Shown here in pieces: positions 1 to 47,169 of a DNA stretch of 64,000 nucleotides (positions within the stretch are counted from its first letter, which is position 1; each line of letters begins with the position of its first letter). Origin of the DNA: Escherichia coli. GTDB lineage: Bacteria > Pseudomonadota > Gammaproteobacteria > Enterobacterales > Enterobacteriaceae. Position numbers and translations under genes: made by a program. The notes beneath the pieces were generated by a model that saw nothing but the letters and a program-made list of their open reading frames with translations, had not been told where the DNA came from and made no database searches. The stretch lies in NCBI RefSeq assembly GCF_003019035.1, contig NZ_CP027447.1. The stretch is one strand, 5' to 3'.

Positions 1-539
1 GTAATCGGAGACTCGGCCATTAAGCGCATCATCTGCGGCCAGTGATGCCAGAGAAAAAACCCCGTCACGCTGCCAACCAGGATGGTTTTCAAAATTGCTT
101 TAAGTAACTCCGCGCCAGTCTGAGCCGAGAACATCCGTTTAATGCCCGGTAGCGGGTTGAGTTTGGAAAACTTCGGCTGCAAGGATTTGCCGCTAAATAC
201 CAGCCCTCCCAGCATGACCGGAGAAATGAGCGCCACCAGTACCACGCCGCTAATCAGTGGCAGCAGCGCCAGCATGGCTTCTCTGATCAGCAGAATAATC
301 TGCCCGAGGATCAGATTCGGGTCATTGATAATACTGTGATCAAAATGCAGCCCAGCGGAGAGCATGCCCGACAATCGACGGGCCAGCGACACACCGCCAA
401 ACCAGATAACACTCACGCCCACTAACAAAATCAGCAGCGAGGTCAGTTCACGGGAACGCGGGATTTGCCCCTCTTCCCGCGCTTTTTCTAGTCGGTGAGG
501 TGTGGGGGCTTCTGTTTTGTCGTCGCTCTCGTCAGACAC
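1..539 (-). CDS. flhB: Flagellar export apparatus protein FlhB, N-terminal part (gene continues beyond window start)
   Basis: Reverse-strand translation from GTG at 539 reads VSDESDDKTEAPTPHRLEKAREEGQIPRSRELTSLL..., recognisable as FlhB N-terminus; not in ORF track because it runs off the window edge. Confidence 0.85.
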   Translation of the reverse strand, partial: MSDESDDKTEAPTPHRLEKAREEGQIPRSRELTSLLILLVGVSVIWFGGVSLARRLSGMLSAGLHFDHSIINDPNLILGQIILLIREAMLALLPLISGVVLVALISPVMLGGLVFSGKSLQPKFSKLNPLPGIKRMFSAQTGAELLKAILKTILVGSVTGFFLWHHWPQMMRLMAESPI

Positions 540-775
540 GTCGCCAATCCTGGAAAGAGTATTAAGCGTAAATGATGCCAGAGCGCAAAGCGTTCAATGG
601 TTTGAGTAAGGGGCAAAACAGGCGGGATTTAGGGCGTTTATGCAAAAAATAGGTTCAGTTGCAGAACGTTTTGCGAACCATTTTCCAGTTCTGAGATTTA
701 GCCATTTAGCCTATAGAATCGCCCACCGCCTCTCTGTTAGTTTGCTAATAATTAAATTATTACAAAGGCGATCAA

Positions 776-2284
776 ATGGAATGGCAACAATTGCTTAACT
801 GCAACCGTCGGAAAGATAATCTAAAAAAAACCAGCATAGAATTTTTACATCCCCTTGCTAGCGGAAGACAAGAGATCGAGCGGGATTACGACCGATTACT
901 TTTTGCTGCGCCAACTCGTCGGCTTGCGGATAAAACACAAGTTTTCCCGTTAGATCAAAATGACAGTATACGGACGAGGCTGACTCATTCTCACGAAGTA
1001 GCAAACTTTGCTCGCGGAATAGGAATGAGACTCGCTTTCGAGATGAAGGAACACATCTTTGGCGAAATACCCACGGGGATTGTCGTTGAACGCGACGTTC
1101 CTGCTCTGTTAGCAGCGATCGGACTGGCACACGATCTCGGTAATCCACCATTTGGGCATCAAGGTGAAGCAGCGATGCGCGCATGGTTTAATAAAAATCT
1201 TCCAGGCCTTCTTGATAAAGAAGTAAACAGCGAAATATATAACGACTTTCTGCAATTTGATGGAAACTCACAAACCCTGCGCCTGGTTACCAAATTACAA
1301 ATTATTAACGATAACTTTGGTCTGAATCTGACCTATGCCACGCTGGCTGCACTGATCAAATATCCCCGAGCTTCATATTCATCGGACAAACATTGGAAAA
1401 AGCACGGTTTTTTCTATTCTGAGCATGAGGTTGTCATGGATGTCTGGCAACAAACGGGCCTTGGCGTACCAGGTAATGATGCCGGTTGCCGCCACCCATT
1501 TACCTGGATAATGGAAGCTTGCGACGATATTGCCTACTCTGTGCTGGACGCAGAAGATACCATCAAGAAAGGATTTGCCTCATACCAGGATTTGCGTGAT
1601 TTTTTGATGTCACAATCCGAGCCGAACGATGTAATTCAACATGTTATTGAAGCTGTAGAGGCCAAAAATGACGCCTGGAAAGAGCAAAGAAATGCACTTT
1701 CACCGGCGGAAATTAATGAACTCAGTATGCAAATGTTCAGAGTTTATGCCACCAGTGCATTGATTAATGCCGTAGTAGAAGCCTTTCGCGAACAATTACC
1801 CACGCTGATGCAGCGTGACTGCCCGTTCAAAGATTTAATCTCGCAAAGCAAAGGTCACGCTCTCTGCACTGCCCTGAAAATGTTCGACCGAACACGAGGC
1901 TACTTTCATCGTTCAGTCTTGCAACTGGAACTTAGGGGATCTAATTACATTACTAACTTGATGGATATGCTCTGGATTGGCATCCATGGACACAAAACAA
2001 AGAAAGAACGAGACGGAGAACGCGAGTCCGCGTCTACAGATAACCTTTTTGTTTCTCGTGAAGAATACCTGTCGGATACTCCCTTTGGTCGCTATGCTTA
2101 CGGGACAATCTCTGAAAATTATCGCCGTGTGTTTGAAGATCCCGCCAATACACTCCCTATTCTTTATAAAGAAGCGCAGTTGCTTACCGACGCAATCTCA
2201 GGCATGACGGATAGTTATTTAATGCGCCTTCACGATGAGCTAAAATCACTGTATGAATGTGGTCTCAAACACCCAACAGCTTGA
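776..2284 (+). CDS. Dgt-family HD-domain deoxynucleoside triphosphate triphosphohydrolase homologue (dGTPase-like), accessory copy
   Basis: 502-aa ORF with AAGG RBS about 9 nt upstream; motifs TRLTHSHEV, LAHDLGNPPFGH, TWIMEACDDIAYSVLDAED and C-terminal ISGMTDSY align with E. coli Dgt motifs as I recall them; local GC about 35-42%. Confidence 0.8.
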   Translation: MEWQQLLNCNRRKDNLKKTSIEFLHPLASGRQEIERDYDRLLFAAPTRRLADKTQVFPLDQNDSIRTRLTHSHEVANFARGIGMRLAFEMKEHIFGEIPTGIVVERDVPALLAAIGLAHDLGNPPFGHQGEAAMRAWFNKNLPGLLDKEVNSEIYNDFLQFDGNSQTLRLVTKLQIINDNFGLNLTYATLAALIKYPRASYSSDKHWKKHGFFYSEHEVVMDVWQQTGLGVPGNDAGCRHPFTWIMEACDDIAYSVLDAEDTIKKGFASYQDLRDFLMSQSEPNDVIQHVIEAVEAKNDAWKEQRNALSPAEINELSMQMFRVYATSALINAVVEAFREQLPTLMQRDCPFKDLISQSKGHALCTALKMFDRTRGYFHRSVLQLELRGSNYITNLMDMLWIGIHGHKTKKERDGERESASTDNLFVSREEYLSDTPFGRYAYGTISENYRRVFEDPANTLPILYKEAQLLTDAISGMTDSYLMRLHDELKSLYECGLKHPTA

Positions 2285-3005
2285 ACAGCGTATCGCCGAT
2301 TTTTTTACGCTTAGTGATGAGCATAAGAAAGCCAGAGTATTACTTGATACTCTGGCCTGTTCCTGTCCGGCCTGGATTTTTGGCGGGATGGTGCGTGACT
2401 TAGGCTTGTTTGGCGTCGAGGGATTCTCTTCAGACCTTGATATCGTCATCGGTCGCTCCCGTGAGGAACTCTTCCGGACATTGGCTGAACTGCCCGTCAA
2501 ACAACTGCGTTTTAATAAGTTCGGTGGGATCCGTTTTCGTTATCACGACTTCGAATTTGATATCTGGAACCTCAATGAGACATGGGCATTTCGGGAAAAA
2601 CTTATATTTTGTGAGGATGAATCAAGTCTGTTAAACACTACGCTGATGAGTTGGGATGCCGTGCTCTATGATCTACGTAGTGAAAAAATTATCAGTAAAG
2701 ATAATTATTTGACCGACTTAAATCGCAGACATCTTGAACTTGTTCTTCATACTAACCCCAATCCAAGCGGTTCGGTAACGAAAATTTTACGCACTATTTT
2801 TACTAAGCAGGTAAAGAGTTTAGGTCCGGAACTCTGTCATTTCTTGCACCATGAACTGACGAAAAAACGTTATGAAGTTTGGCATCATTACGATGTACTG
2901 CACTACCAGTCATCGTCATTTTCTCGTTCACAATTTAATGCGTTGATAAATTTACTGGCGCAACAATCACGCTTCGCTGATCTAAAATTATCAAATTACA
3001 AATAA
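2253..3005 (+). CDS. Pol-beta superfamily nucleotidyltransferase-like protein (tRNA-NT/poly(A) polymerase head-like motif), unknown function
   Basis: 250-aa ORF overlapping the upstream gene by 32 nt; motif WIFGGMVRDLGLFGVEGFSSDLDIVIG resembles the GGxVRD...DxD head motif of CCA-adding enzymes and PcnB; the rest has no recognisable body/tail domain. Confidence 0.65.
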   Translation: MNVVSNTQQLEQRIADFFTLSDEHKKARVLLDTLACSCPAWIFGGMVRDLGLFGVEGFSSDLDIVIGRSREELFRTLAELPVKQLRFNKFGGIRFRYHDFEFDIWNLNETWAFREKLIFCEDESSLLNTTLMSWDAVLYDLRSEKIISKDNYLTDLNRRHLELVLHTNPNPSGSVTKILRTIFTKQVKSLGPELCHFLHHELTKKRYEVWHHYDVLHYQSSSFSRSQFNALINLLAQQSRFADLKLSNYK

Positions 3006-3049
3006 CCATCCTCCACATACTTCCTGAACGATACCCGCCCCCCTGCTAT

Positions 3050-3074
3050 CGGCCTGGCATCATCGCGCAGGCCG
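3050..3074. other. 7-bp inverted repeat hairpin (CGGCCTG-N11-CAGGCCG) between the cassette 3' end and the cheZ stop
   Basis: Perfect inverted repeat read in sequence; no flanking T-run on either strand, so not a canonical intrinsic terminator. Confidence 0.3.
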
Positions 3075-3092
3075 AAGTTAAGGCAATACAAA

Positions 3093-3737
3093 TCAAAATC
3101 CAAGACTATCCAACAAATCGTCCACCTGATCCTGACTGGCTACCACACCGGCTTTGCTGGTATCGACCTGAGGTCCATTAAGCAAACTCTGGTTTTCACG
3201 TTTTGGACGCGACTCCTGTTCCGGGATGTTTTCCAACAGCACCATCAGCAACTGACGTTCGATCTCCTGAATGACATCCATCATCCGCTTAATGACCTGC
3301 CCGGTGAGATCCTGAAAATCCTGCGCCATCATGATTTCCAGCAGTTGCGCGTTAGTAAAGCTGGTATGCACGGGGACATCTACCAGAAATTGCCGCGTAT
3401 CTGTTACCAGTTCTCGGGCGTCGGCAAGGTCGATCGGATCGGCAAACCAGTCATCCCAACGTTGGGTTAACGCTTTTGCTGATTTCTCCATTTGATCCTG
3501 ATGCGGTTGTGACGCCTCAACACTGTTCAGCGCCCGCTCCGCAGCCTGGGCGGTCATCTGCACAACATAGTACAAACGATCGCGCGCATCGGGGATGGCT
3601 TCCGCCGCTTCGGCAATGGCCTGATCCAGCCCCAGCTCCCGCAAACTGTCGCGCAGCATACGCGTCAGGCTGCCGATGCGCGCAATGATATCGCCAGCTG
3701 AATGCTCGTCAGCAGGTTTGATTGATGGTTGCATCAT
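3093..3737 (-). CDS. cheZ: Chemotaxis phosphatase CheZ
   Basis: Translation [24 protein letters not shown]... to ...DDLLDSLGF matches E. coli CheZ; start taken at MMQP inside the longer track ORF. Confidence 0.95.
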
Positions 3738-46272: not shown

Positions 46273-46752
46273 ATGTTCACGATTAAAACAGATGATCTCA
46301 CCCATCCAGCAGTGCAAGCATTAGTGGCTTACCATATTTCCGGCATGCTGCAGCAGTCTCCCCCCGAAAGCAGTCATGCTTTAGATGTGCAAAAATTACG
46401 TAACCCGACAGTGACATTCTGGTCAGTATGGGAAGGCGAACAACTCGCAGGAATTGGTGCGCTGAAGTTGCTGGATGATAAACATGGCGAGCTGAAATCA
46501 ATGCGTACCGCGCCTAATTATTTACGTCGTGGTGTCGCCAGTCTGATTTTACGCCACATTTTGCAGGTCGCCCATGACAGATGCCTTCATCGCCTGAGCT
46601 TAGAAACGGGTACACAGGCTGGATTTACGGCCTGCCATCAACTTTATTTGAAGCATGGTTTCGTTGATTGCGAACCGTTTGCTGATTATCAACTTGATCC
46701 ACACAGTCGATTTTTGTCATTGACGCTATGCGAAAATAATGAATTGCCATGA
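46273..46752 (+). CDS. yedL: GNAT-family N-acetyltransferase YedL
   Basis: 159-aa ORF at the yedL position. Confidence 0.85.
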   Translation: MFTIKTDDLTHPAVQALVAYHISGMLQQSPPESSHALDVQKLRNPTVTFWSVWEGEQLAGIGALKLLDDKHGELKSMRTAPNYLRRGVASLILRHILQVAHDRCLHRLSLETGTQAGFTACHQLYLKHGFVDCEPFADYQLDPHSRFLSLTLCENNELP

Positions 46753-47169
46753 GCCAGACGCAGCACATTCTTGCATTCGACGAGCTGCGCCTTTATTTAT
46801 TATCAGCCGCAAATGTCTTGTCCTTAGACGCTCTTTCCACATGCGCCACAAGAAACCTCTATTCCAGTGACACAATTATGCCTGATTATTTCCCTAGCCC
46901 GGAATATGAATAAAAACATCAAATAAGATGAAATTATCAAAATATTAATGTTGCGTCTGTGGTCGTAACAACAACCGACCTGGTGATGCGTGTTAAAGGA
47001 GACACTCTGATGTTCAGGGGGGTTATCACGTATACAGATCGTGGATGGCAGAAAACTTTCAGAATCAGGTTTCCATTTTAAACCAGAAATTGAGTGAGTT
47101 TGCCCCATCAATGCCCCACGCTGTGAGTTTGGATGTCATTAAACAAGCACAATCAACACGTAACACAAC

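Follow-up and report, generated by a model that had tools for sequence, protein, structure and literature searches.

A 64,000-nucleotide stretch of Escherichia coli DNA (assembly GCF_003019035.1, contig NZ_CP027447.1; hereafter the window) carries, between the flagellar gene flhB and the chemotaxis gene cheZ, a two-gene cassette that is very probably a Clover anti-phage defence system. The first gene, cloA, encodes an HD-domain dGTP (deoxyguanosine triphosphate) triphosphohydrolase, and the second, cloB, a Pol-beta-superfamily nucleotidyltransferase (NTase). The pair was assigned to Clover because the two-gene order, the active site of CloB and, in CloA, the catalytic center and the pockets for dTTP (deoxythymidine triphosphate) and p3diT (5'-triphosphothymidyl-3'5'-thymidine) all agreed with that family. 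The assignment is thus based on homology, gene order, the catalytic and nearly all ligand-contact residues, and the fold and active site of CloB, together with an accessory distribution and purifying selection. The window copy is a divergent, uncharacterised member of a known family and not an unnamed system. The family had reportedly been predicted by bioinformatics beforehand, by Nicastro et al. in 2023.

Clover (CloA/CloB) was described and structurally solved in 2025 (Yamaguchi et al., bioRxiv 10.1101/2025.07.09.663793, PMC12265719). Against T5-like phages, the tested operons of Salmonella enterica SA20044414 and E. coli H5 protected more than 10,000-fold. CloA is an HD dGTPase with an octameric 'four-leaf' assembly and is inactive alone. 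Its specific activator is dTTP, whose level increases as T5-like phages remodel the pool of deoxynucleoside triphosphates (dNTPs). For Salmonella CloA, the EC50 of dTTP is about 15 uM and the IC50 of p3diT about 7.6 uM. CloB is a Pol-beta NTase making p3diT, which binds CloA beside the dTTP site and raises the activation threshold, and CloA is highly toxic without CloB (PMC12265719). A distant Xanthomonas CloB was also reported to make p3diT, and a supplementary table of about 650 CloB homologues accompanies the paper (PMC12265719). The Protein Data Bank (PDB) codes of Salmonella CloA are misprinted there as '8P9S...'; the matching entries are 9P8S-9P8V, and 9P8W is cited correctly.

The First Gene Encodes a CloA Homologue

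The first gene (cloA, 776..2284, + strand) encodes 502 amino acids (aa) and was assigned as the HD-domain dGTP triphosphohydrolase effector by homology to Salmonella CloA. Its best PDB matches were 9P8S-9P8V, entries of Salmonella CloA with eight chains each and the title 'dNTP triphosphohydrolase' (E = 3.4e-190, 636 bits, 67% identity), compared with 133 bits for the housekeeping Dgt 4X9E and 89 bits for the Shewanella dGTPase 9P8W. The identity to the tested E. coli H5 CloA was 60%. An earlier note on this DNA, made from the letters, had not recognised the pair as a named system, which the 2025 description of Clover and the 67% identity to the solved Salmonella CloA overturn. Its call of a Dgt-like HD hydrolase was right: the protein matched the Pfam HD domain and passed the dGTP triphosphohydrolase subfamily model TIGR01353 with 284.1 bits (cutoff 152.35). 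It failed both the E. coli Dgt equivalog NF003429 (270 bits, cutoff 405) and NF041026, antiphage_dGTPase (182.9 bits, cutoff 400), and it matched the uncurated PADLOC dGTPase model with E = 9e-71.

In the identical sequence of E. coli SCU-301, RefSeq names the first gene 'dgt: dGTP triphosphohydrolase' and the second 'hypothetical protein'. The RefSeq/PGAP name 'dgt' belongs to a core housekeeping gene, and the product of 776-2284 scores under the cutoff of the Dgt equivalog. The annotation is thereby corrected from 'dgt' plus 'hypothetical protein', and from the lone dGTPase of PADLOC 2.0, to a Clover pair.

All residues given a role in PMC12265719 were mapped by a HMMER alignment to 9P8S, in which the chain index equals the paper's number plus 2; this offset was verified by H117/D118 and H126/E129. 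The six catalytic residues (metal, HD and HE) are all kept as H71, H119, D120, D250, H128 and E131, corresponding to H69, H117, D118, D242, H126 and E129 in Salmonella. The dTTP activator pocket is identical at nine of nine positions, namely R49, D63, Q175, K264, S446, N448, A473, T478 and Y481 (Salmonella R47, D61, Q172, K256, S418, N420, A444, T449 and Y452). Y481 is the counterpart of Salmonella Y452, whose mutation abolishes defence (PMC12265719). Nine of the ten residues of the p3diT inhibitor pocket are also identical (R31, R36, D39, R40, F43, N77, N184, Q319 and R322), among them three arginines (R31, R36, R40) and the residues that read the bases (D39, N77, Q319); the Salmonella counterparts of the ten are T25, R29, R34, D37, R38, F41, N75, N181, Q311 and R314. 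A further substitution is L174 to I177. The paper's 'Q377' falls on a glutamate in both CloA proteins, probably a numbering detail, and was not used.

The alignments also located a variable charged loop insertion at 1991..2071 (+ strand; residues ~406-432), just before the S446/N448 dTTP-contact segment. The loop has no counterpart in Salmonella and H5 CloA. It measures about 27-28 aa in the E. coli and Cronobacter proteins and about 18 aa in loci L003 and L004; the Enterobacter and H5-type proteins lack it (0 aa).

The Second Gene Encodes a Predicted CloB

The second gene (cloB, 2253..3005, + strand) encodes a Pol-beta-superfamily NTase of 250 aa, the predicted synthase of the inhibitory signal. 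Sequence searches with PADLOC, NCBIfam, Pfam and phmmer against the PDB gave no match or marginal ones, and the best Pfam match was a weak one to the PolyA_pol head (E = 0.099). The gene was identified by structure prediction and by direct comparison with H5 CloB, after the H5 operon had been located in the E. coli H5 genome with a length of exactly 2,200 bp, as the paper cites. It was 35% identical to the tested H5 CloB over the full length (E = 1e-54), and D61/D63 of the window CloB aligned with D71/D73 of the H5 protein, the residues mutated in PMC12265719. Ten positions were invariant in 32 CloB homologues: G44, G45, R48, D49, S60, D61, D63, G91, G92 and D103. The resulting motif GGxxRD...SDxD...D agrees with the active-site pattern [D/E]h[D/E]...h[D/E]h. 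The AlphaFold2 model of CloB had a predicted local distance difference test score (pLDDT) of 92 and a predicted template modelling score (pTM) of 0.88, and it matched class II CCA-adding enzymes and poly(A) polymerases with a Foldseek probability of 1.0 and E ~5e-8, in line with the Pol-beta NTase named in the earlier note. By analogy with its homologues, CloB would synthesise a signal and not modify tRNA.

The stop of cloA and the start of cloB overlap by 32 nt (2253..2284, + strand), which suggests translational coupling. Overlaps were also found in L003 and L004 (32 nt), L010 and L011 (38 nt) and H5 (47 nt). Wherever the sequence allowed, cloA lay directly upstream of cloB in essentially all of the 38 species-level loci.

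Proposed Mechanism and Comparison With Known Systems

For its enzymology, signals and phage range, the window copy is interpreted by analogy with the systems published for Salmonella and E. coli H5. By this analogy, CloA alone would be inactive and would be switched on allosterically when dTTP rises, as under the remodelling of the dNTP pool by T5-like phages. Active CloA would deplete the cell of dGTP and so block phage DNA replication. CloB, CCA-adding-enzyme-like and translationally coupled to CloA, would make p3diT, and p3diT in the pocket next to the dTTP site would raise the dTTP threshold, sparing uninfected cells the toxicity of CloA.

The window copy shares with the tested Clover systems the overlapping cloA/cloB two-gene operon, the catalytic and allosteric residues of CloA, and the catalytic aspartates and fold of CloB. 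It differs in its CloB, which is 35% identical and 26 aa shorter at the ends, and in its CloA, with the loop insertion of ~27 aa and the changes H263Q, Q427D and T25L. Whereas the H5 operon lies in a tRNA-Sec integrase island, the window copy lies between flhB and cheZ without an integrase.

The stand-alone anti-phage dGTPase of Shewanella putrefaciens (SpdGTPase, 9P8W) has the same HD dGTPase fold and dGTP depletion strategy, but it is constitutively active, hexameric and partnerless (PMC12265719), matched the window CloA with only 89 bits, and the NCBIfam antiphage_dGTPase score was under its cutoff. E. coli Dgt (4X9E, 6OIY) and human SAMHD1 are likewise nucleotide-controlled HD-domain dNTP triphosphohydrolases. 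Dgt gave only a 133-bit match and an equivalog score under the cutoff, and it is itself a core gene elsewhere, without an NTase partner or p3diT control. CloB shares its head fold and the GGxxRD...DxD motif with class II CCA-adding enzymes and poly(A) polymerase (3H39, 5HC9, 3AQL), but it lacks their body and tail tRNA-binding domains, and identity is 13-19%, with PolyA_pol at E = 0.099. Hailong and Panoptes/MISS have been likened to Clover, as systems that keep a toxic effector repressed by a nucleotide signal made constitutively (PMC12265719). Compared by description, they differ from it in effectors (ion channel or others), signals (oligo-dA, 2'3'-c-di-AMP) and NTase lineage.

The window variant offers a natural test of how far p3diT/dTTP control tolerates CloB divergence, interface changes and a near-sensor loop. 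It is also an example of a defence system that is a long-lived presence/absence polymorphism and not island-borne, which leaves the known concept unchanged. Only the non-mobile flagellar residence, the diverged CloB, and the loop and interface changes of CloA are points that may be worth more work.

Alternative Explanations

Several points weigh against the Clover reading or its details. Clover is not among the models of PADLOC 2.0, whose only call here is a stand-alone 'dGTPase'. The cassette sits among core flagellar genes and lacks the defence-island or mobile-element context in which Clover was described; that context is how the family was discovered and not a mechanistic requirement. CloB is only 35% identical to the tested protein, and its probable product is deduced from the CloA pocket. 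In CloA, L27 replaces T25, a p3diT phosphodiester contact; D455 replaces Q427, the partner of N175 in the suppressed-state loop; and Q271 replaces H263, the stacking residue that stabilises the tetramer within the octamer, with R46 of the octamer interface kept as R48. The ~27-aa insertion adjoins the dTTP-sensing segment, and this sub-lineage is described here by gene sequences and a predicted structure.

These differences bear on an explanation within the Clover family, in which CloB makes another nucleotide or CloA differs in threshold, cue or assembly. The gap in identity to the tested proteins (35% for CloB vs 60-67% for CloA), the length-variable charged loop (0-28 aa) adjoining the dTTP-contact segment, and the changes H263 to Q271 at the oligomer interface and Q427 to D455 in the switch network all speak for a different mechanism. 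We nevertheless consider it unlikely: the thymine base contacts are all kept, D39, N77 and Q319 for p3diT and D63, T478, R49 and Y481 for dTTP, and even the distant Xanthomonas CloB makes p3diT (PMC12265719). A second Dgt of the housekeeping type, paired with a regulator and acting in dNTP-pool homeostasis or motility-linked physiology instead of immunity, would be reflected in the fixed locus. The RefSeq name 'dgt', the lack of a mobile-element signature, the same locus across genera and the purifying selection on both genes would fit it. It is made highly unlikely by the Dgt scores (270 bits vs an equivalog cutoff of 405; 133 bits to 4X9E), by carriage in only 2% of E. coli, decay in Buttiauxella and an insertion sequence (IS) in the Enterobacter copy, by the absence of a sigma-28 promoter, and by the fact that the close homologues are proven defence systems (PMC12265719).

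PADLOC's own call, a stand-alone anti-phage dGTPase of the type of Tal et al. (2022) next to a functionally unrelated gene, is less probable again. The score to the PADLOC dGTPase model (E = 9e-71) and the lack of a significant PADLOC, NCBIfam or Pfam match for the second gene favor it, but the match to NCBIfam antiphage_dGTPase reached 183 bits against a cutoff of 400 and that to Shewanella 9P8W 89 bits against 636 for CloA. Moreover, cloA and cloB overlap and co-occur in every locus examined, and CloA keeps the pocket residues that would bind the product of CloB. The least probable explanation is a toxin-antitoxin module whose toxin would be the NTase, modifying tRNA 3' ends like MenT or AbiEii. 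CloB does resemble the fold of tRNA CCA-adding enzymes, tRNA-bound structures included. However, it consists of head and neck only (250 aa vs ~400 aa for CCA enzymes), no MenT, AbiEii or DUF1814-type match was found with PADLOC, NCBIfam or Pfam, and in the tested homologues inactivation of the NTase causes toxicity, the HD enzyme being the toxic effector (PMC12265719). The earlier note's idea of an NTase toxin acting on tRNA ends thus fails, as the NTase of Clover is the protective p3diT synthase, without which CloA is toxic. Its broader suggestion of a nucleotide-targeting defence module with a dNTP-depleting dGTPase gains support from the Clover homology and the accessory distribution.

Distribution and Selection in E. 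coli

The Clover cassette was present in 107 of 5,426 complete E. coli genomes (2%), always chromosomal, in single copy and at the flhB-cheZ junction, so that the pair does not belong to the common core genes, a point that the earlier note had left to comparison of this junction. All other chromosomes had an empty junction, seen as one short joined match, and no other large insert was seen there. Among plasmid records, a query of 400-3300 gave two matches and a cassette-only query none; the two matches are therefore flhB/cheZ flank sequence or misassigned replicons. The carriers include SMS-3-5, a strain named 'ST648' and IMT16316, which we take to be phylogroup F lineages. The H5-type Clover, whose operon lies in the tRNA-Sec integrase island, was found in only 8 E. 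coli genomes. The commonest Clover of E. coli is thus the window type (107 of 5,426) and not the tested H5 type.

The copies of the cassette differ by 0-2% among E. coli. Against the two most divergent copies, the synonymous divergence (pS) was 3-7%, and the ratio of nonsynonymous to synonymous divergence (pN/pS) was 0.18-0.30 for cloA and 0.03-0.04 for cloB. The low pN/pS and the divergence of the copies indicate that both genes are constrained and that the cassette has long been resident in the species.

The related E. coli strains 1532WA and 1532MA carry an IS1 between cloB and cheZ (L008, 3817-4514), with the clo genes intact. In E. coli E17 (L058, 5077-6451; window ~1396 onwards), an IS1-bounded deletion has removed the 3' two-thirds of cloA and all of cloB, and it continues through cheZYBR, tap, tar, cheWA, motBA, flhCD and uspC into otsA. 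Motility has presumably been lost in E17. None of the loci examined combined an intact cloA with loss of cloB, which is consistent with the toxicity of CloA.

The Pair in Other Enterobacterial Genera

Pairs of this sub-lineage lie in the flagellar/chemotaxis locus beside cheZ in at least seven enterobacterial genera. The window type was found between flhB and cheZ, or at any rate immediately 3' of cheZ, in Enterobacter hormaechei, E. quasihormaechei, Cronobacter dublinensis, Pseudescherichia vulneris with two related genomes, Atlantibacter subterranea, A. hermannii and two enteric contigs. In these loci the identity to the window was 63-80% for CloA and 47-73% for CloB, and for the flanking genes 85-90% for CheZ, 95-98% for CheY and 93-95% for CheB. 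In Erwinia the pair lies beside a methyl-accepting chemotaxis protein gene or a flagellin gene. In a neighbor-joining tree of CloB, made without bootstrap, the flagellar-locus copies grouped together, except for Pluralibacter.

The window copy belongs to a distinct Clover sub-lineage, which may be new and which resides in the flagellar/chemotaxis locus of Enterobacteriaceae and not in a mobile island. The positional tie to the flagellar locus is genuine and persists from genus to genus, with common descent as the simplest explanation. On the simplest reading, the cassette was inserted long ago in an ancestor of these enterics, was passed down together with the locus and has repeatedly disappeared; alternatively, copies may have been exchanged by way of the highly conserved genes on either side.

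Decayed copies were also observed. Only fragments of the pair are left between flhB and cheZ in Buttiauxella izardii (L053, 4474-5658), and Buttiauxella massiliensis has truncated open reading frames (ORFs) at the same address (L031, 3502-5856; CloA 376 aa, CloB 196 aa). In one Enterobacter hormaechei locus (L009, 2365-5038), an IS3-family element splits cloA into 396 aa and 87 aa and leaves cloB intact; if CloA is the toxic partner, losses should occur in this order.

The pair adjacent to cheZ in Pluralibacter gergoviae (L029, 3605-5760) groups with the mobile H5-type CloB in the same tree. By its sequence, a second Clover lineage may have settled at the same cheZ-proximal site in Pluralibacter, which hints that the site itself may matter. 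A bolder proposal is that the flagellar-locus clade is functionally distinct and has been chromosomally fixed beside cheZ throughout the history of Enterobacteriaceae. This seems improbable to us. If it held, expression might be linked to the divergent FlhDC-dependent flhBAE promoter and hence to the motile state, or the divergence of CloB and the loop of CloA beside the dTTP sensor might alter the signal, the threshold or the range of phages, which might for example extend to flagellotropic phages.

The H5-type island module was also found in Atlantibacter, beside a type I restriction system. Its neighbors are common to E. coli H5 (L007:1353-5535) and Atlantibacter hermannii (L013:1-3259), and the block consists of a PfkB kinase/nucleoside deoxyribosyltransferase, a QueC-like 7-cyano-7-deazaguanine synthase, a hypothetical protein, an Ogg-like glycosylase and a Dam-like methylase. 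This block looks like a DNA-modification or defence module.

Locus Boundaries and Base Composition

The GTG start codon of flhB lies at window position 539 on the - strand and the cheZ stop at 3093. The 2,553-bp gap between them is filled by two + strand ORFs, antisense to the flanking genes, as the earlier note had described. Its statement that flhB and cheZ are adjacent in K-12 was also correct, the spacer there being 201 bp. A pairwise blastn alignment to K-12 placed the breakpoints at 643/644 and 3080/3081, with flanks 98.3-98.5% identical right to the junctions. The whole cassette (644..3080, + strand) therefore measures 2,437 bp and stands in place of an 87-bp REP-like (repetitive extragenic palindromic) spacer of K-12. 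This empty site (L002, 743-829) is palindromic (GCCTGATATGACGTGGTCACGCCACATCAGGC) and shows no trace of the cassette. On the flhB side, the flhB upstream region (540..643, - strand) is common to the empty-site genomes; in K-12, the identity to window 1-643 is 98.3% as far as the breakpoint. These flhB-proximal ~100 bp are partly conserved across genera.

The mean GC content of the cassette was 44.0% (cloA 45.0%, cloB 41.7%; 37-49% in 300-nt windows), compared with 53.1% in the cheZ-cheB flank and 50.4% in the whole window. The lower GC content that had been noted earlier was thus confirmed, but it is less extreme than the 35-42% sampled at that time. In all genera examined, the cassette was 5-13 points under its flank.

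The ends of the cassette have no repeat of at least 7 nt in common, direct or inverted, and show no target-site duplication or terminal inverted repeat, and neither annotation nor inspection of the context revealed an integrase or transposase in the window copy. A signature of mobile-element origin was rejected on these grounds. No phage-borne homologues were found, and plasmids carried only distant ones (at most 35% identity; Phaeobacter, Bacillus).

Upstream Region and Link to the Flagellar Regulon

A sigma-70-like promoter candidate for cloAB was located at 691..719 (+ strand; CTGAGA, 17-nt spacer, TAGAAT), which matched the consensus at 9 of 12 positions and was not significant alone. About 100 bp upstream of cloA, including this candidate, are homologous across genera, and the block around it (TTTTGCG..TTCCAGTT..) is shared by the cloA upstream regions of E. 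coli, Enterobacter, Cronobacter and L004. A perfect tandem of ATTTAGCC x2 lies at 696-711, within the spacer of the candidate; its conservation does not extend to the other genera.

A sigma-28 (class III flagellar) promoter upstream of cloA was rejected, the best match reaching 10 of 16. In the same scan, the controls in the window were recovered with 16 of 16 for tar, 15 of 16 for fliD and 14 of 16 for both fliC and motA. The 104 bp upstream of flhB are untouched by the cassette. Crosstalk from the divergent FlhDC-dependent flhB promoter is possible, and nothing indicates it. T5-like phages are not known to use flagella as receptors. The speculation that the location is connected with flagella as phage receptors found no support, as the tested Clover systems act mainly against T5-like phages and no sigma-28 promoter precedes cloA.

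Downstream, a GC-rich hairpin lies between the convergent cloB and cheZ (3037..3084), with a core stem pairing 3050-3056 with 3068-3074. Its minimum free energy was -24.3 kcal/mol (z = -3.08 vs shuffles), and it lacks a T-run. This hairpin may serve as a bidirectional terminator or a stabiliser. No known RNA family was found in or around the cassette, a single snoRNA match (E = 0.77) being due to chance. Elsewhere in the window, yedL (GNAT acetyltransferase, ~46273-46753) is annotated as a frameshifted pseudogene in the identical SCU-301 record.

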